A DNA stretch of 32,000 nucleotides from Microcystis aeruginosa NIES-2549 (GTDB lineage: Bacteria; Cyanobacteriota; Cyanobacteriia; Cyanobacteriales; Microcystaceae): NCBI RefSeq assembly GCF_000981785.2, contig NZ_CP011304.1, forward strand, positions 4,260,001 through 4,292,000, in the 5' to 3' direction. The position numbers and the translations under genes were made by a program. The notes under the pieces were generated by a model. The model had not been told where the DNA came from and did no database searches. It worked only from the letters and a program-made list of their open reading frames with translations. This document shows, piece after piece, positions 20,713 to 32,000 of the stretch; the stretch's first letter is position 1; every line of letters starts with the position of its first letter.

Positions 20713-21348
20713 ATGACCACCACCGCCGATGACGTTTGGAAATTATTAGCCGAATTAGTAGAAGCTCAAAAAGAGACAGAAAGATGCTTTCAAGAAACCG
20801 AGCGACGCTTTCAAGAAACCGAGCGGATTCTCAAAGAACAATCGTTAGAAACCGAGCGGATTCTCAAAGAACAATCTTTAAAAACCGATCGCCAAATTAC
20901 TAGACTCAGTAAAGAAATTGGTAATCTTGGCGGTAAATGGGGACGTTTTGTCGAAAATATGGTAGCTCCAGCTTGTGAGACTTTATTTTTAAATCGTCAG
21001 ATTCCCGTACATCAAGTTAGTCAAAGAGTCAGAAAACGTCTCGACGGTAAAACCCTAGAAATTGATGTGTTAGTAACTAATGAAAATCATGTGCTGGTAG
21101 TGGAAGTCAAAAGTAGTTTAAGTGTAGATGATGTCAAAGAATTAATCAAGAATCTAACAGAATTTAGGCAATTTTTCCCAGAATATAACCAGAAACAATT
21201 ATATGGGGCAGTAGCAGGCATTGAAATCGAAGAAGGAGCAGATAAATATGCCTATCGTCAAGGTTTATTTGTCTTGGCACAAAGGGGGGAAAATGTAGCA
21301 ATTCTTAACGATACTGAGTTTCAACCGAAAACGTGGTATGATCCTTAA
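20713..21348 (+). CDS. Coiled-coil plus PD-(D/E)xK-like nuclease-fold protein (DUF3782-like), copy 2
   Basis: 211 aa. Tandem paralog of 20008-20655 including ~45 nt of upstream sequence. Lacks one ERRFQET module and has a different C-terminal end (..TWYDP). Confidence 0.7.
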   Translation: MTTTADDVWKLLAELVEAQKETERCFQETERRFQETERILKEQSLETERILKEQSLKTDRQITRLSKEIGNLGGKWGRFVENMVAPACETLFLNRQIPVHQVSQRVRKRLDGKTLEIDVLVTNENHVLVVEVKSSLSVDDVKELIKNLTEFRQFFPEYNQKQLYGAVAGIEIEEGADKYAYRQGLFVLAQRGENVAILNDTEFQPKTWYDP

Positions 21349-21349
21349 G

Positions 21350-21465
21350 CTTGTCTTTGGGAAAGTCCAGTGCGATTCTGGTACTGTGCCGCAGCTGTAA
21401 TCAAGTAAAAAGTAAAAAGAGTACATCTTCCCTTTTTCCTTGCGAGTCAGAATGCCAATTACAAG
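21350..21465 (+). promoter_or_regulatory. Cobalamin riboswitch (short form, no large peripheral extension) upstream of cobG-cobH-cobI
   Basis: GGGAAAGUCCAGUGCGAUUCUGGUACUGUGCCGCAGCUGUAA (21359-21400) closely matches the conserved core as I recall it from E. coli btuB (GGGAAUCCAGUGCGAAUCUGGAGCUGACGCGCAGCGGUAA). B12-box-like AGUCAGAAUGCC at 21445-21456. Closing helix CUUGU (21350-54) / ACAAG (21461-65). Confidence 0.7.
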
Positions 21466-21532
21466 TTTTTAATCGGTAGATAGACAAATATTTTCTAACT
21501 ACTTCTCTGCGTCGCATGGAGAACAAACAACG

Positions 21533-22948
21533 GTGAATTGGTTAGTTGAAGCAAATGCTTGTCCTGGTTTATTTTATGGAACTGCTGCCCAGGATGGGTT
21601 TTTAATTCGTCTCCGCACCCCCGGTGGATGGCTCAATTCTCCACAGGGAAAAGCGATCGCCACTTGGCTCGAACAATGGCAGACGACAATACAAGTTACC
21701 AATCGGGCAAATCTGCAAATTCGCGGACTGCAAAAATCCCCCAGTTTAGAAGAATTTCAAACCCTGCAAAAATTAGGGTTAGCCGCCCATAATCCCAGTA
21801 TCGATCATCTGCGTAATATCATGTCCAGTCCCACGGCTGGAATTGACTGTCAAGAATCGATCGATACTCGTCCATTAGTCCAAGAATTAGATAATTTTAT
21901 CCAAAATTATCCATCAATTGCCCAACTAAGTCCTAAATTTAGTATCGGCATCGATGGCGGTGGTGCAGTGGGAATTGGCACCGGTTCAACTATGGCCTGG
22001 CAACACCGCTATAATGAGATTCAGCTATCAGCAATTGTCCTCAATAATCCGAAAAATTTAACTTCTATTCTTTGCTTTCGATTAGCCCTCGGAGGAGATA
22101 AACAATTATATGACACGGACTTATTAATTGAGCCAGAAAACTGTTTAGCTGTGGTCAAAGCTTTAGTCACAGTTTATATCGATTATGTTCAACAAAACCC
22201 CAATATCAAGGGTAAAAAACCTCGGATGAAACACCTGCTCAAAGATTGGGGATTGACAAAATATCTCGAACAAGTTAACTACCAATTACATCGGACTTCT
22301 ACCGGCATAATACAAGGGCAAGAATACCAGCAGGCTGCCCATTCTACTCAACCCTATTTTCATCTGGGAATTCATCCTCAAAAGCAACCAGGATTATCTT
22401 ATATTGGTCTATCATTAAGATTAGGACAATTGACGGCTAATCAACTATGGGGATTAGCGGCACTATCAGAAACTTTTGGCAGTGGTCAGTTACGATTAAC
22501 CCCTTGGCAGACTGTTATATTACCCGATATTCCCGATGAAAAAGTCTCAGAATTGTTGCCAAAACTGGCATCCTTAGGATTATCCGCTTCTCCCGGATGG
22601 GATGCGGGGATAGTTGCCTGTAGCGGTAAACCGGGCTGTGCGGCGGCGGCCACTGCAACTCAAATTCATGCTTCTCTCTTGGCAGATTATTTGAAAGAAC
22701 ACTTAACCTGCAATTCTCCTGTTAATATTCACTTGACAGGTTGTGCTAAATCCTGCGCTCAACCGGGTCCGGCCGAAATTACCCTTTTAGGAACTACCAT
22801 CGAGGAAAATGGCCAAATACTAGAAGCTTATCAAGTCTATATGGGTGATAGTCAAAAATTCTTAGAAACACCCATATTTGAGGGAGAATTTACCAAGATT
22901 CCCCCCCTCATAGCCCAAATTTTAAGCTCCCAAAAATCGAAAATTTAG
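21533..22948 (+). CDS. cobG: Precorrin-3B synthase (CobG; sulfite/nitrite-reductase-like)
   Basis: 471 aa with a GTG start. N-terminal ACPGLFYGTAAQDGFLIRLRTPGG is the CobG signature. C-terminal Cys cluster CSGKPGCAAA ... GCAKSC. Confidence 0.8.
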   Translation: MNWLVEANACPGLFYGTAAQDGFLIRLRTPGGWLNSPQGKAIATWLEQWQTTIQVTNRANLQIRGLQKSPSLEEFQTLQKLGLAAHNPSIDHLRNIMSSPTAGIDCQESIDTRPLVQELDNFIQNYPSIAQLSPKFSIGIDGGGAVGIGTGSTMAWQHRYNEIQLSAIVLNNPKNLTSILCFRLALGGDKQLYDTDLLIEPENCLAVVKALVTVYIDYVQQNPNIKGKKPRMKHLLKDWGLTKYLEQVNYQLHRTSTGIIQGQEYQQAAHSTQPYFHLGIHPQKQPGLSYIGLSLRLGQLTANQLWGLAALSETFGSGQLRLTPWQTVILPDIPDEKVSELLPKLASLGLSASPGWDAGIVACSGKPGCAAAATATQIHASLLADYLKEHLTCNSPVNIHLTGCAKSCAQPGPAEITLLGTTIEENGQILEAYQVYMGDSQKFLETPIFEGEFTKIPPLIAQILSSQKSKI

Positions 22949-26701: not shown

Positions 26702-27847
26702 AGACCTCTCCAAAAATTTATAAGTCAGTCACAGCAAGGAAGAGAGGCAGATTAGACCAAGAGTCAAAATTAGCTCTCAAAACCGATTAATCAGGGTTTG
26801 AAGAGACAAAATCCAATTTTGACGGAAAACTATGGCTAATTATAACGTCAATTACTTCCCCTGATTGCTCCCCTTCTATTACTTCTAAAATTAGCGCACT
26901 AATTCTCAACCTTACTAAGCCACAAACGGTCAGTAAAACCGATTTATATCGACTTTTATTTAATCTAAATCTTTCTTGAACTACTTTAAATACTTTGACA
27001 ACTCGAATTAAATGCTCAACAAAAATTCGCCGAGATGATAAAACTTTATTTTCTTTAATTTGATTCTCGGTTAATTCTCCATTCTTAGGTTTTTTATCAG
27101 GAGTTCTGATTTGATTTTCTCCTAGGTAAGCTTTATCTCCAATAAAAGTTTGTTGAGAATCGAATTTGCTTAAAGTTTGCCGACAGATTTTTATGTCGCT
27201 CGTCGGACCAGGTTGACCAATAACTACATCAACAATATCTTCAGCTTTTGGCAAGACAATAAATTGACTTTTTAAAGTATGTCTTTTTTGCTTTCCCGAA
27301 TAATATATTTTTTGTTCTTGATAATCGGTCGGCCTCTCCACGGGCTGTTCTGCGCTATCGACAATCAACTCATAATCCCTTAATTGTTCAATTATTATTT
27401 CCTCTTCTTGGCACTTCTTTATTTGTTCTAACAAACTTGGCGGTAACTCTCCTTCAAAAAGTTTTTGCCAATAGGTAAAGATATTATGAGCCGTTGATTC
27501 ACTCACTTGAAATATTAGTCCTAAGATTTGAAAGCTTAGATGATGTCTTAAATAAACCAACATTAGAACAATTTGTTCCTCTTCTGATAATTTAGGAGGT
27601 GTTCCGCTTCCTGGTTGATTAATCCTAATTTTGGTTTTTTCGATTTCTGATTGGTTTTTCCGATGTATAAGTTTTCCAAGTGCCATCAGTTGTTCTAGTT
27701 GTTGGTAGTCAATTCCTAATAGTCTTTTAGTTTGTTTCGGATATTTTTGAATGTATTCCCAAGTGTAGTTTTTCATGGCTTTTTTGAGTTACTATTTGTT
27801 TTATTATATCCTATATATTGTGATTTAATTAAATTATGGAGAGGTCT
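26702..27847 (-). mobile_element. IS5-family (IS4/IS5 superfamily, DDE_Tnp_4-like) insertion sequence
   Basis: Terminal inverted repeats (T)AGACCTCTCCA at 26701-26712 and TGGAGAGGTCT(A) at 27837-27848. The flanking duplication reads as AAT (26699-701 / 27848-50) or TA, depending on where the IR ends. There is a single transposase ORF. Confidence 0.8.
26787..27776 (-). CDS. IS5-family DDE transposase
   Basis: 329 aa. N-terminal HTH region (LSEEEQIVLMLVYLRHHLSFQILGLIFQVSESTAHNIF). Candidate DDE residues at LIVDSAEQPVERP, FIGDKAYLG and RIFVEHLIRVVKVFK. Confidence 0.85.
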   Translation of the reverse strand: MKNYTWEYIQKYPKQTKRLLGIDYQQLEQLMALGKLIHRKNQSEIEKTKIRINQPGSGTPPKLSEEEQIVLMLVYLRHHLSFQILGLIFQVSESTAHNIFTYWQKLFEGELPPSLLEQIKKCQEEEIIIEQLRDYELIVDSAEQPVERPTDYQEQKIYYSGKQKRHTLKSQFIVLPKAEDIVDVVIGQPGPTSDIKICRQTLSKFDSQQTFIGDKAYLGENQIRTPDKKPKNGELTENQIKENKVLSSRRIFVEHLIRVVKVFKVVQERFRLNKSRYKSVLLTVCGLVRLRISALILEVIEGEQSGEVIDVIISHSFPSKLDFVSSNPD

Positions 27848-27877
27848 AATATAAAACAGCGAAGCACGATTAAATCC

Positions 27878-27907
27878 TTGACAGTTTAGCCTTGCATAGT
27901 TTATCAT
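27878..27907 (+). promoter_or_regulatory. Putative sigma70-type promoter for tnpB
   Basis: TTGACA (27878-83), 17-18 nt spacer, then TTATCAT (27901-07), about 25 nt upstream of the tnpB ATG. Sequence match only. Confidence 0.3.
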
Positions 27908-28507
27908 AGTAAATATGGTTTGATAAACAAAATGTTAAAAGCGTTTAAGTACAGAATCTATCGTGCGACTCGTTCCTACCAAAAGTCTAACAGACGTGGG
28001 TAGGACAAGGTTGAGAACCTTGATAACTCAATAACCGTGAAGGTGAAAGTCCTTCCCTCCAGATGATGGAGTGACAGCATAACCCCTTCCTGTGGAGAAC
28101 GGTCATCAAAATGGGAAAAGCGGGGTTAAATGGCAGTAAAGATGAATCTGACATCAAAACCTGTCTAGCATCTAACTATGTGTATGAATAAGAACTTCCG
28201 TCAGAAGTATCGTCACTGAAACCTAGCCTACACAGATTATTGGCTGGCAACAAAATGTTAACAAGCTAACGTACTGGGAAAAGATAGAGTTCAACCAGAA
28301 TCATCTACACAGCTTCGGTATAGAGGAAGACACTAAAGTTAGGAATACGGTTGTTGGGAACGAAGTAATCCTTATGAATCTCTTAGATAGGTCGAAATCT
28401 AAGTAGTAACCAGCGTAAGACTCATATAGGAAAGGATTGTGTAAGAAGCCAACGCCTATCTGTAATAGATAAGGATATGCTGACGTACACACTGTTCAAT
28501 GGAATGA

Positions 28508-30268
28508 ATGGTCTTAAGTAGTAATGAAAAAGTTATGAACACGGCAACAAAACCGATGTATGAATGGAAGGACATCAACTGGCGAAAAGCTGAAAGATGT
28601 GTTTTTAAGTTATCAAAAAGAATATTCAAAGCCAGTCAACGGGGTGATGTCAAATTAGTCCACAAATTACAAAGGCTACTCCTAAAAAGCTGGTACGCCA
28701 AACTGATAGCCGTCAGACGGGTTAGCCAAGATAATCAAGGCAAGAAAACCGCAGGGGTAGATGGGATAAAATCCTTAACACCCAAACAAAGAATGGCACT
28801 TGTCAATAATCTAAAACCTGGCAATAAATCAAAACCAACTCGTAGAGTATGGATACCAAAACCCAATACGGATGAAAAGCGACCTCTAGGGATTCCCACC
28901 ATGTACGAACGGGCATTACAAGCCTTAGTAAAACTGGCATTAGAACCCGAATGGGAAGCAAAATTTGAACCTAACAGTTATGGATTTAGACCAGCACGTT
29001 CAGCCCATGACGCAATCGGAGCAATCTACATAAGCATCAACAAAAAGCCCAAATATGTGCTAGATGCGGACATAAGTAAATGCTTTGATAAAATAAACCA
29101 CCAGAAACTACTGACAAAACTTCAAACTTACCCCAAGCTAAGACAACAAATCAAAGCATGGCTAAAGAGTGGAGTCATGGATGGAAAAAACCTATTCCCT
29201 ACCAATGAAGGCACACCACAGGGAGGTGTAATCTCCCCTTTACTAGCTAACATAGCCTTACACGGCATGGAAGAAAGAGTTAAGCAATATGCAAAAACTC
29301 TGAAAGGCAATAAATCCAAAAATGAACAAGCCTTAACCCTAATCAGATATGCAGATGATTTTGTTATCCTGCACGAAGATTTAAAGGTAATAAAGGAATG
29401 TCAAGAAATCATTAAACAATGGTTAGCAGAAATGGGGCTAGAACTGAAGCCTAGTAAAACAAGAATATCCCATACTCTTGAAACTTATGATGATTACGTT
29501 GGATTTGATTTTCTCGGATTCAACATCAGGCAATACCAAGTCGGAAAACATCACGGGGCAAAAAGTAGTAAAGGAGTCAAACTAGGTTTTAAAACCCTAA
29601 TCAAGCCTAGTGCTGAAAAAGTCAAGTCCCATCTAAAGAAATTGGGAGAAGTAGTAAATAGTCAGAAGTCATCCCCACAGGATGCCTTAATCAAACGACT
29701 CAATCCAATCATTAGAGGATGGAGCAATTACTATTCATCAGTAGTAAGCTCAAAAACATTCACAGATTGTGATTACTACTTCTTTGAAAAACTCAAGAGA
29801 TGGGCATACAGACGACACCCAATGAAAAACAAAACTTGGATAATGCGTAAATATTGGCATACTGAGGGAAAAGATAATTGGGTATTCAGCACAAGAGGAG
29901 GTAAAAACCCCTTCAAACTGGCAAGACACCTAGATACAAAAATCGTAAGATACGTCAAGGTGAAAGGGGATAAAAGTCCCTATGATGGGGATTTAATATA
30001 CTGGAGTAGTCGAATGGGTAAACACCCAGAAATGCCACCAGAAAAAGCTATTCTACTCAAAAGACAGCAAGGACGTTGTGCATATTGTGGACTATATTTC
30101 CAAGATGGAGACATACTCGAAACCGACCACATTATCCCTAAATCAAAAGGGGGTAAAAACAATCGAGATAATAAACAGTTACTCCATCGACATTGCCACG
30201 ATTCTAAAACTGCATTAGATAAAACTGGTACTCATGACAAAGAGCCATTGGAGAGAGGAGCGGTGTGA
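28508..30268 (+). CDS. Group II intron-encoded protein: reverse transcriptase, maturase (X), DNA-binding and HNH endonuclease domains
   Basis: 586 aa; the likely start is MNTATKPMYEW at 28535. RT motifs RVWIPKPNTDEKRPLGIPTMYERALQ, GTPQGGVISPLLANIAL and IRYADDFVILH. X domain RLNPIIRGWSNYY. HNH CAYCG...ETDHIIPKSKGG...LLHRHCH. Confidence 0.9.
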   Translation: MVLSSNEKVMNTATKPMYEWKDINWRKAERCVFKLSKRIFKASQRGDVKLVHKLQRLLLKSWYAKLIAVRRVSQDNQGKKTAGVDGIKSLTPKQRMALVNNLKPGNKSKPTRRVWIPKPNTDEKRPLGIPTMYERALQALVKLALEPEWEAKFEPNSYGFRPARSAHDAIGAIYISINKKPKYVLDADISKCFDKINHQKLLTKLQTYPKLRQQIKAWLKSGVMDGKNLFPTNEGTPQGGVISPLLANIALHGMEERVKQYAKTLKGNKSKNEQALTLIRYADDFVILHEDLKVIKECQEIIKQWLAEMGLELKPSKTRISHTLETYDDYVGFDFLGFNIRQYQVGKHHGAKSSKGVKLGFKTLIKPSAEKVKSHLKKLGEVVNSQKSSPQDALIKRLNPIIRGWSNYYSSVVSSKTFTDCDYYFFEKLKRWAYRRHPMKNKTWIMRKYWHTEGKDNWVFSTRGGKNPFKLARHLDTKIVRYVKVKGDKSPYDGDLIYWSSRMGKHPEMPPEKAILLKRQQGRCAYCGLYFQDGDILETDHIIPKSKGGKNNRDNKQLLHRHCHDSKTALDKTGTHDKEPLERGAV

Positions 30269-30291
30269 GGTGAAAGTCTCACGCACCGTTT
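30258..30291 (+). ncRNA. Group II intron domain V (catalytic hairpin)
   Basis: GAGCGGUGUGAGGUGAAAGUCUCACGCACCGUUU aligns almost position for position with the ai5-gamma DV as I recall it (GAGCCGUAUGCGAUGAAAGUCGCACGUACGGUUC), including the AGC triad and GAAA loop. Confidence 0.85.
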
Positions 30292-30670
30292 TGAAGCCGA
30301 GCCAGAATGGTGACATATCTGGCTTAGGGCAACCGACCAGTGAGCAATCCGTTTTGCTTGCCAAGTCGTTTGGCTGTGCTAGATGGTTTTACAATTACGC
30401 TCTAAACTTGACATCCGAAACTTACAAGCAAACTGGAAAAGGATTAAGCAGAGACGAAATAATTAAGCTGCTGCCTTCCCTAAAAAAAAGTATGAGTGGT
30501 TAAGCGAAGTACCATCGCAGGTATTACAACAAGCCGCTTTAAATCTTTCTAGTGCTTTCCTTAACTTTTTTGAAGGTAGAGCTAAATATCCTAACTTCAA
30601 GAAAAAACAGAATAGGCAGTCGATTAGATTTCCTCAGCACTGTAAGTTAAAAAATGATGTTCTGGTATTA

Positions 30671-30771
30671 AGTAGTCGTGCAAAATAAATTTCCTAGTGA
30701 AGATAGGCAAGAGGCAATAGGCAAGAGGCAAAAGCTTTATCGAAATGTGTAATTAATGTTGCTTAGGTACT
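30671..30771. mobile_element. 101-bp MITE with AGTAG/AGTAC termini and a TA target duplication, inserted in tnpB
   Basis: ctggtat-TA-AGTAGTCGTG ... GCTTAGGTACT-TA-cctaaa. Removing 30671-30773 restores ...DVLVL-PKIGEV... in frame. Contains the internal repeat ggcaagaggcaa. Same terminal motif as the MITE at 15134-15277. Confidence 0.65.
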
Positions 30772-31449
30772 TACCTAAAATTGGTGAAGTCCATTGCCAA
30801 GTTTCACGGCAACCAGAGGGAGACTTAAAGTCTGTTACGGTTTCAGTTAATCCATCAGGAGAATATTTCGCATCTTGTCTTTATGATGATGGTCAGGATT
30901 TACCCCAAAAATTAACAGAAGGAAAAACTATCGGGATAGACGTTGGACTAACCCATTTTGCTATTACATCAGATGGGACTAAACACGGGAATCCTCAATA
31001 CTACCGTAAGTACGAACAGAGATTAGCGAGGAGACAAAAGAAACTTAGTCGCAAGCAAAAAGGGTCTAACAACCGCAATAAAGCTAGAGTTAAAGTTGCT
31101 AAAGTTCACTCTAAAATTGTTCGTTGTCGTGAAGATTTTCTGCACAAACTAAGTCGTAAATTAGTTGACGAAAACCAAGTCATAGTGATAGAAAATCTGG
31201 CAGTCAGAAACATGATCAAGAATCAAAATCTAGCCAAGTCAATTAGTGATGCTGGTTGGGGTCAATTCTGTACCATGTTGAAATATAAAGCTGAATGGGA
31301 AGGGAAAATTTATCTTGAAGTAAATAGATTTTTTCCTAGTTCCAAGACTTGTAGTAACTGCTTAAATCGTGTTGATAGTTTGAGTTTAGATATTCGTAGT
31401 TGGCAATGTCCTAAGTGTGGAGAAACCCACGATAGAGACATCAATGCCG

Positions 31450-31626
31450 CTAAGAATATTCGAGATGAAGGTTTACGAATTTTGGCGGTAGGGCATACCG
31501 CTACTGCTTCTGGAGGGAGAGTAAGACCAAGTAAAGGCACTGCTTTTGCAAGGCATCTCCCCGTGAATGAAGAATCCCTCGCTTCAGTGCTTCGGGGAGT
31601 GTCAACCCATTCCCTGCCAATGGACT
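31450..31626 (+). ncRNA. Predicted omega (right-end) RNA region of the degraded tnpB element, with an ackA-derived guide
   Basis: By analogy to TnpB systems. The conserved right-end motif ends at 31606, so the guide would be ccattccctgccaatggact (31607-31626). The extent is a guess and expression is unknown. Confidence 0.3.
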
Positions 31627-32000
31627 GAACTGGGAATCCGTCGCTATGGTTTCCATGGCACCAGTCATCAGTACTGCTCGCAACGGGCCGCCGAATTGTT
31701 GGGAAAACCCCTAGAATCCTTGAAAATGGTGATCTGTCATCTGGGCAATGGTGCTTCCCTATCGGCAGTCAAGGGGGGTAAAAGTATCGATACCACTATG
31801 GGATTTACTCCCCTAGAGGGATTGATGATGGGAACCCGCAGCGGTACGATCAATCCAGTGATTCTGATTTATCTAGAGCGAGAATACCAATATAATCCCG
31901 ATATTTTAAAGATTTTACTGCATAAAGAATCTGGTTTAAAGGAAATTTCGGGTATTTCTGGGGATATGCGGGCAATTACGACGGCAATGGCCGAAGGCAA
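31606..32000 (+). pseudogene. ackA: Acetate kinase 3' portion (from about residue 190 onward), running off the window
   Basis: The translation PIPCQWTELGIRRYGFHGTSHQYCSQRAAELLGKPLESLKMVICHLGNGASLSAVKGGKSIDTTMGFTPLEGLMMGTRSG... carries AckA hallmarks (RRYGFHGTSH, HLGNGAS, GFTPLEGLMMGTRSG). No start codon is present and the roughly 170 upstream codons are absent from the window. Confidence 0.85.

Follow-up and report, generated by a model that had tools for sequence, protein, structure and literature searches.

A complete group II intron interrupts a tnpB gene in Microcystis aeruginosa NIES-2549, within the 32,000-nucleotide (nt) stretch of DNA that was analysed here (contig NZ_CP011304.1, positions 4,260,001 to 4,292,000; hereafter the window). 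The tnpB gene belongs to an insertion sequence (IS) of the IS200/IS605 family. Very probably the intron is a mobile element, putatively of the IIB chloroplast-like type, whose natural homing site is the DNA encoding the TnpB motif (Y/F)-R-(I/F/L)-Y-P^(T/N)-x-E-Q, where the caret marks the insertion point here and below. The anatomy of the intron, its exact junction, its independent insertions and the covariation between the exon-binding sites (EBS) of the intron and the intron-binding sites (IBS) of the exons are all observed. An earlier reading of the window, made from the sequence alone, had proposed that tnpB was invaded, at its conserved N-terminal motif, by a complete group II intron, and this proposal is supported.

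Structure of the intron and its junction with tnpB

The intron is 2371 nt long, begins with GTGCGAC and ends with GGGCAAC. The boundary consensus of group II introns (5' GUGYG, 3' AY) is satisfied by GUGCG at 27963 and CAAC up to 30333. The intron and the tnpB exons on its two sides consist of the following parts.

27932 to 27962, plus strand: tnpB exon 1, carrying IBS2 (27950 to 27954, TACAG) and IBS1 (27957 to 27962, TCTATC)
27963 to 30333, plus strand: group II intron, putatively of the IIB chloroplast-like type (Rfam, Pfam, comparative fold, empty-site identity)
27963 to 28507, plus strand: domains I, II and III of the intron, with the beginning of domain IV (RNAalifold, 11 relatives)
28216 to 28220, plus strand: EBS2, CUGAA, which in the window copy makes 4 of 5 pairs to IBS2 (exon positions -13 to -9)
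28283 to 28288, plus strand: EBS1, GAUAGA, in the loop of the hairpin CUGG...CCAG, with 6 of 6 pairs to IBS1 UCUAUC at exon positions -6 to -1
28508 to 30268, plus strand: intron-encoded protein (IEP) with RVT_N, reverse transcriptase (RT; YADD), X/maturase (GIIM) and HNH endonuclease domains (Pfam)
30257 to 30292, plus strand: domain V with AGC triad and GAAA loop (RF04357 and RF00029, fold, compensatory changes in L007 and L089)
30296 to 30330, plus strand: domain VI with the bulged branch-point A at 30326 (Rfam, fold)
30334 to 31628, plus strand: tnpB exon 2, a pseudogene with a frameshift and then a miniature inverted-repeat transposable element (MITE); IBS3 is the C at 30334 (Pfam fragments)

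Exon 1 starts with the ATG at 27932 and is only 31 nt long, encoding MLKAFKYRIY and the first nucleotide of a proline codon. When 27962 is joined to 30334 in silico, the reading MLKAFKYRIY^PTSEQ results, and the spliced junction DNA AAGTACAGAATCTATC^CGACCAGTGAGCA is the same as in the uninterrupted tnpB genes of two other Microcystis loci (L087 and L088). The intron boundaries are fixed by this identity between ligated exons and empty sites, so that the claim that removal of 27963 to 30333 restores the motif, 31 nt into the gene, holds to the base. The predicted ligated exon junction in RNA is AGAATCTATC^CGACCAGTG, or in a longer form ...ACAGAATCTATC^CGACCAGTGAGC.

The 3' part of the ribozyme was recognized in an Rfam scan, in which domains V and VI (30255 to 30327) match RF00029 with 46.4 bits (gathering score 40, E 2.9e-6) and RF04357 with 55.5 bits (gathering score 53, E 3.2e-10). 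This segment folds with z = -5.0 and has the AGC triad, the GAAA loop and the domain VI helix with its bulged A. Domain V, described earlier as near-canonical, thus lies above the gathering score of both models, and the bulged A, the eighth nucleotide counted from the intron 3' end, has 7 nt behind it as had been noted. Compensatory changes in domain V are seen in two relatives of the intron (L007 and L089). For the 5' 545 nt, the RNAalifold consensus of 11 relatives contains 137 pairs, 75 of them with compensatory double changes. The limits of domains I-III within this comparative fold are approximate.

The open reading frame (ORF) at 28508 to 30268 is intact and encodes 586 amino acids (aa). 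The RT-X-D-HNH ORF given by the sequence-only reading is present; Pfam finds RVT_N, RVT_1 (E 5.5e-46), GIIM (3.2e-24) and HNH (2.9e-13), and the YADD and HNH residues are present in the translation. The closest solved structure is that of the T.el4h IEP (6ME0, E 3e-112). Proteins of several Microcystis aeruginosa strains are 99-100% identical to the IEP.

Exon recognition and the target site across genera

Relatives of the intron were collected in two ways. A scan with the IEP, using one genome per species, gave 80 loci. The four nearest among them (IEP 83-86% identical) come from Lyngbya sp. PCC 8106 (L007), Microseira sp. (L008), a metagenome-assembled genome (MAG) of Microcoleaceae (L019), and a short contig binned as Planctomycetia (L006). 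A metagenome scan with the intron 3' end added five more relatives (L089-L093) of 82-94% nucleotide identity. In all nine of these distant relatives the intron interrupts the same proline codon behind its first nucleotide, in the context ...(Y/F)R(I/F/L)Y-P^(T/N)x(E/D/A)Q. The host TnpBs share no more than 31-66% identity with the Microcystis protein. No member of the lineage lies at an unrelated target among the copies found (two further Microcystis loci, four genomes from other genera, and five metagenome contigs). The comparison with other genomic copies proposed along with the sequence-only reading therefore finds both kinds of site: intron-less homing sites with an identical junction (Microcystis L087 and L088) and further occupied copies, all at the same tnpB codon position.

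Some of these relatives are of interest in themselves. L006 (JBJTSM010000046.1, a 2.6-kb contig of the Planctomycetia MAG) is the closest relative outside Microcystis, its IEP being 86% identical. Since all other relatives are cyanobacterial, its assignment to Planctomycetia is most likely a binning error rather than a cross-phylum transfer. The Microseira copy (L008, 2544 to 2677) has CCC in place of the AGC triad of domain V and GUGGGAUUUG as its 5' end, with the 586-aa IEP ORF open; it looks like a dead ribozyme whose protein gene is still alive. L019 and L007 have broken IEPs. An ORF-less derivative is found on a metagenome contig (L090, 2598 to 4134), where intron position 877 is followed directly by 1700, so that positions 1-877 and 1700-2371 make up 1537 nt. 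It occupies the same site in tnpB; its IBS1 has drifted to TTAAGC and its tnpB has a stop. The tnpB gene of Lyngbya sp. PCC 8106 (L007, 5300 to 7720) carries a second group II copy about 390 nt downstream of the first, after ...PLPIRWSRQ. This second copy begins at about intron position 485, 5'-truncated as an abortive reverse transcription would leave it, and L007 was for this reason not accepted as a tnpB with two introns.

How the site is recognized was studied by aligning domain I across the clade and comparing it with the 5' exons, with covariation assessed over nine independent sites. EBS1 and IBS1 occur as the pairs GAUAGA/UCUAUC, GGUAGA/UCUACC, GGUAGG/UCUACC, and GGUAAA/UUUACC, so that EBS1 covaries with the exon at two positions (GGUAGA/UCUACC and GGUAAA/UUUACC). 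The EBS2 stretch, which is unpaired in the consensus fold, pairs with IBS2 as CGGUA/UACCG, CUGAG/CUCAG, CGAUA/UAUCG, CUGAA/UUCAG, and CUAAG/UUUAG. It follows from this covariation that pairing of RNA with DNA defines the insertion site. Two EBS1 candidates had been left standing by the sequence-only reading. The one at 28283 to 28288 is the real site, as it covaries; the other (28386 to 28391, GATAGG) lies in a conserved hairpin stem, shows no covariation with the exons, and was rejected. In all cases exon position +1 is C. With A as the base 5' of EBS1, a delta-delta' pair is not formed, which fits EBS3/IBS3 recognition of the IIB type and not the delta-delta' recognition of IIA introns. Together with an IEP nearest to T.el4h (CL/IIB1), it is consistent with a IIB, chloroplast-like intron.

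Spread among tnpB paralogues

Besides the window, the intron is found in two further Microcystis contexts, one between DUF4258 and DUF2283 genes (L001 and L002), the other beside the gene for alanine racemase (L003-L005 and L086). In each of these contexts tnpB follows the intron. Across the three non-orthologous loci, intron copies differ from each other by 0-4 nt out of 2371. The IS around the intron varies far more: the IS left end of the window is 84% identical to that of the other Microcystis loci, and exon 1 is 97% identical between the window and the other loci and 94% between L001 and L003. Identity among Microcystis loci is about 95-96% in the proximal part of exon 2 and 89-94% in its distal part. 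Exon substitutions start 5-6 nt past the 3' splice site and about 15 nt ahead of the 5' splice site. Near-identical introns in diverged exons cannot come from one insertion that was then carried along by IS transposition, and substitutions so near to the splice sites leave no co-conversion tract, which argues against gene conversion. Complete reverse splicing and reverse transcription into diverged paralogues, on the other hand, predicts this identity pattern. Judged from these sequence comparisons, the pattern points to spread by independent retrohoming into diverged tnpB paralogues.

One can ask whether the intron entered tnpB a single time and the intron-bearing IS then transposed as a unit with TnpA acting in trans. 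All copies lie within complete-looking ISs that have left and right ends, and such hitchhiking could act besides homing. It would be expected to let intron and IS diverge jointly, however, and at the three Microcystis loci divergence amounts to 4-16% in the exons and IS ends but to no more than 0.17% in the introns. In the other genera, introns with 82-90% nucleotide identity are found in hosts whose TnpBs are 31-66% identical. This explanation is very unlikely, and as a sole mechanism it is essentially refuted by the contrast between intron and exon identity.

Spread at the DNA level, through homologous recombination, gene conversion or double-strand-break repair between tnpB paralogues, is equally hard to credit. 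The paralogues are homologous enough for recombination and the HNH domain could make the breaks. Flanking substitutions start, however, no more than 5-6 nt downstream of the intron and about 15 nt upstream of it, without the co-conversion tract that such repair would leave, as is predicted for complete reverse splicing with target-primed reverse transcription. Transfer between TnpBs that are 31-51% identical cannot use exon homology, and the EBS/IBS covariation shows a site set by RNA-DNA pairing. Gene conversion in particular was rejected because of the missing co-conversion tracts and the contrast in identity.

Independent retrohoming into tnpB, the preferred reading, would proceed as follows. 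The tnpB promoter in the IS left end would transcribe the intron, which would splice with the help of its own protein. To find further copies of tnpB, the resulting lariat ribonucleoprotein would rely on EBS2/IBS2 (5 bp, at -13 to -9 of the exon) and EBS1/IBS1 (6 bp, -6 to -1), probably also on EBS3/IBS3 (the C at +1), and on protein contacts. It would then reverse splice into the sense strand, the HNH domain would nick the opposite strand, and the RT would copy the intron (target-primed reverse transcription). Because tnpB is present in many copies and its motif is under constraint as protein sequence, each related IS is a fresh and harmless target. By retuning EBS1 and EBS2 the lineage has tracked tnpB across cyanobacterial genera. 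Susceptible empty tnpB sites persist (L087 and L088), so the tnpB copies are not saturated; of the earlier suggestion that the intron could spread through every tnpB copy in a genome, homing into diverged paralogues is upheld and saturation is not. A search of plasmid and phage collections with the intron gave no match, and no vector for transfer between genera was identified.

Several points weigh against the homing reading. Splicing, mobility, the target-primed pathway and present-day activity are inferred from sequence. The Rfam models of domains I-IV have no match in a permissive E-value scan of 27800 to 31800, which is why the 5' domains were tested by the comparative fold; of the covariance-model check proposed earlier, the part on domains V and VI gave matches, the part on domains I-IV did not, and domains I-III are backed by comparative covariation. 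The missing match is regarded as uninformative, as these models cover other classes. EBS3 was not located by covariation, IBS3 being invariant. EBS2/IBS2 of Microcystis also has one mismatch (CUGAA against UACAG). The intron EBS2 would match a 'KFR' type of tnpB perfectly (UUCAG, as in L090). Microcystis tnpB may be a slightly sub-optimal target, and the fit to KFR-type tnpB hints at a recent host switch.

The window tnpB itself is a pseudogene. It shares 92-97% identity with Microcystis TnpB as annotated, and Pfam finds the TnpB domain set HTH_OrfB_IS605, OrfB_IS605, and Cas12f1-like_TNB on the exon fragments. Its frame is lost through a 1-nt deletion, in which a G is missing from the run CTAAAAAAAGAG and eight A's remain at 30482 to 30489. 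An insertion of about 100 bp at around 30669 to 30772 then interrupts the gene between ...NDVLV and LPKIGEV. Therefore tnpB is still broken twice after in-silico splicing, and splicing cannot restore TnpB from this copy. Among the nine occupied tnpB genes that have a full-length exon 2, three are open after splicing in silico (L092, L093, and the L003 type, in which ATG has become ATA and an in-frame TTG lies four codons upstream). The remaining six are broken (the window, L001, L008, L019, L007, and L091), and the tnpB genes on the short contigs L089 and L090 also contain stops. As most occupied tnpB genes are broken, the intron does not depend on a functional TnpB. The idea that splicing could leave the host element functional is thus compatible with three of nine copies and fails for the window copy, with its frameshift and MITE. 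In the window the IS is dead, and the intron in it is a selfish passenger whose splicing would restore nothing.

A dead host raises the question of whether the intron is dead as well, that is, an immobile relic passed on by vertical inheritance only. In addition to the pseudogene state of tnpB, the decay of relatives favors this view (e.g., the CCC triad of L008, the broken IEPs of L019 and L007, the ORF deletion of L090, and the truncated second copy of L007). In the window, however, the 586-aa ORF and its catalytic motifs are intact, and so is the left-end promoter motif. Moreover, 99.8-100% identity with copies at other loci in other strains implies very recent movement. A fossil is accordingly improbable, and the window intron is apparently active, as far as its sequence tells.

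The opposite possibility is a functional partnership, in which splicing acts as a valve on TnpB or the intron gains from TnpB-guided homing of the IS (compare IStrons, and RmInt1 limiting ISRm2011-2). In support of this, the intron always inserts in sense, 31 nt into the ORF; L092, L093, and the L003 type have fully open ORFs after splicing; and a precedent has been argued for RmInt1 (PMC4238363). Sense orientation is needed by any splicing intron, however, and hence is not specific evidence. With six of the nine full-length occupied tnpB genes broken, including that of the window, a partnership is unlikely.

tnpB as an intron habitat, known systems and the surroundings of the IS

Introns whose IEPs are more distant (61-67% identical) also use tnpB. 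With host sites read from ligated exons, at least 16 of the 80 related cyanobacterial introns lie in tnpB, at about 10 different sites. This number is a lower bound, since the survey with TnpB hidden Markov models missed the divergent hosts of L040 and L035, which were seen from ligated-exon peptides. For 15 of the 80 loci, boundary calling by regular expressions gave no result. Pfam identifies the hosts of L025, L026, and L040 as TnpB; that of L035 is TnpB by peptide reading only. The insertion sites are as follows.

L024: GIDLGLN^
L025: GVDLGRRDI^
L011: KHLRV^
L013 and L028: ^DVVAYE(D/E)L
L018: ENLNVSG^
L049: PPHYTSQN^C
L027: GDADLNGAK^N
L026, L040, L035 and L074: close to the C-terminus

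Several of these sites are recognizable as conserved motifs, and tnpB motifs appear from these sequences to be recurrent intron targets in cyanobacteria. In Tolypothrix tenuis PCC 7101, one intron type is found both in the RuvC-I motif GIDLGLN of tnpB (L024) and in the gene for the large subunit of NiFe-hydrogenase (L023). The latter insertion follows the look-alike GLDIGLD^, an apparent off-target event into a housekeeping gene through sequence mimicry.

A broader proposal is that tnpB is a principal long-term habitat of cyanobacterial chloroplast-like introns, and that the lineage co-diversified with TnpB while gaining something beyond target abundance. For example, TnpB-guided cuts at empty sites might cause the IS to be restored by recombination, with the intron recopied each time, or splicing of the intron might throttle TnpB expression. 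If true, either gain would make a partnership between a retroelement and an RNA-guided nuclease parallel to that of IStrons. This proposal is doubtful.

Use of multi-copy ISs as a safe habitat by mobile group II introns is already known and is a textbook pattern. RmInt1 of Sinorhizobium meliloti homes into ISRm2011-2 (PMC1802570, PMC4238363). Like the present intron it has its homing site inside the transposase gene of a multi-copy IS, invades empty copies, and often resides in an inactivated IS. RmInt1 belongs to another intron class, however, lacks the D and En domains, and uses replication-fork priming. Its host gene encodes a DDE transposase of the IS630 family, whereas the host here encodes the RNA-guided nuclease TnpB.

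A closer case is found in Thermosynechococcus elongatus, whose TeI3/TeI4 introns (CL/IIB1), family F4, lie at a conserved site of the IS200-family element ISEL1 (Mohr, Ghanem & Lambowitz 2010, PMC2882425). Three introns occupy the conserved ISEL1 site, which was proposed explicitly as a proliferation strategy (PMC2882425). These are also cyanobacterial chloroplast-like IIB introns with an RT-X-D-En protein, T.el4h being the nearest solved IEP. They too proliferate at a conserved site of a multi-copy IS, form families by retuning of EBSs, and have ORF-less derivatives; in this respect the intron of L090 parallels the ORF-less TeI3 introns. Genus and IS are different, and the site described here is defined by a tnpB coding motif that is kept across genera and diverged TnpBs.

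RT-HNH group II introns have also been reported inside IS605 transposons of two Nostocales, including PCC 7107 (Kapitonov, Makarova & Koonin 2016, PMC4810608). As here, a cyanobacterial RT-HNH group II intron lies within an IS605-family element. That report mentions it in a single sentence, suggesting that it may have supplied IscB with its HNH domain, without analysis of homing site, EBS/IBS or lineage (PMC4810608).

The IStrons provide a looser parallel. They are IS605-type elements that carry tnpB and are fused to a group I intron (PMC4227781, PMC10690162). In both systems a self-splicing intron is physically tied to tnpB and insertion can be phenotypically silent. In IStrons, however, a group I ribozyme sits at the 5' end of a composite transposon and moves as an IS, whereas the group II retroelement described here independently invades the tnpB coding sequence. 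Group I families have no match in the Rfam scans, and identity with an IStron was rejected because the ribozyme is of group II and a group I ribozyme is absent. The sequence-only reading had drawn this parallel and noted the different intron class. The difference in class is correct; the parallel is loose, as the intron parasitizes the IS and is not fused to it.

Modestly new are the strict site fidelity across genera with a retuned EBS, and tnpB motifs as recurrent cyanobacterial intron targets; no paper describing a tnpB-motif-specific intron lineage or its EBS code was found in the literature. The lineage is a clean natural example of an intron that holds one site encoding a protein motif while retuning EBS1 and EBS2. 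In practical terms the intron is a natural 'targetron' aimed at a TnpB motif, and its recognition code is defined. Recurrent targeting of tnpB also bears on the proposed intron origin of the HNH domain of IscB/Cas9 (PMC4810608). In practice, gene callers split such genes or miss the true TnpB N-terminus, so that surveys of TnpB diversity in cyanobacteria miscount or mis-model them. None of these findings overturns current understanding.

A related annotation problem is seen at the intron's 3' end. An ATG there (window 30234 to 30503; L003, 5727 to 6977) reads in frame through domains V and VI into exon 2. Where exon 2 is open, L003-L005 are annotated with a chimeric 416-aa 'TnpB' that has a 33-aa intron-encoded leader. 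This call is probably an annotation artefact.

The host IS contains tnpB only and consists of about 1.29 kb of IS DNA, the 2371-nt intron, and the MITE of about 100 bp. No tnpA was found near the IS in the window. The IS and its surroundings include the following features.

27848 to 31605, plus strand: tnpB-only IS of the IS200/IS605 family (homology limits against Microcystis copies)
27878 to 27907, plus strand: putative sigma-70-like tnpB promoter (motif match, conserved among copies)
30669 to 30772, no strand assigned: MITE-like insertion of about 100 bp (absent from L001 and L003; second copy at L002, 344 to 449)
31606 to 32000, plus strand: acetate kinase gene, 5'-truncated (Pfam Acetate_kinase positions 162-291 of 392, E 4.7e-57)

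The left end lies at about 27848 to 27850 (TATAAAAC...) and the right end at about 31605 (...GGGGAGTGTCAA), both ends being placed solely where homology among the Microcystis copies begins (27848, L003) or stops (about 31605 to 31609). The putative promoter in the left end (TTGACA-18-TATCAT) has 11 of 12 matches, and the motif CTTGACA...TA(C/T)CAT is kept in L001, L003, L087, and L088. We infer that this tnpB promoter would also transcribe the intron.

The insertion of about 100 bp has short terminal inverted repeats of the form AAGTA(G/C) and contains heptamers (AGGCAAG/AGGCAAT) in tandem; it is missing at the corresponding point of tnpB in L001 and L003. A second copy, 88.7% identical, is present in another Microcystis strain at an unrelated intergenic site (L002, 344 to 449) and is not present at the orthologous locus L001. 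Because it is found at two unrelated sites, the element is regarded as a MITE.

The acetate kinase gene fragment (ackA) directly abuts the right end of the IS, and its first 160 codons were not found beside the left end, which suggests disruption or rearrangement of ackA mediated by the IS. Immediately upstream of the IS, an intact gene on the minus strand (26787 to 27776) encodes a 329-aa transposase with HTH_Tnp_4 and DDE_Tnp_4 domains. Mobile elements, namely this DDE_Tnp_4 gene and the tnpB IS, are thus clustered here, nested or adjacent. Farther away, a cobalamin riboswitch (RF00174, 32.4 bits, gathering score 31.5) is found at 21319 to 21477 on the plus strand, upstream of the ORF at 21533 to 22948.

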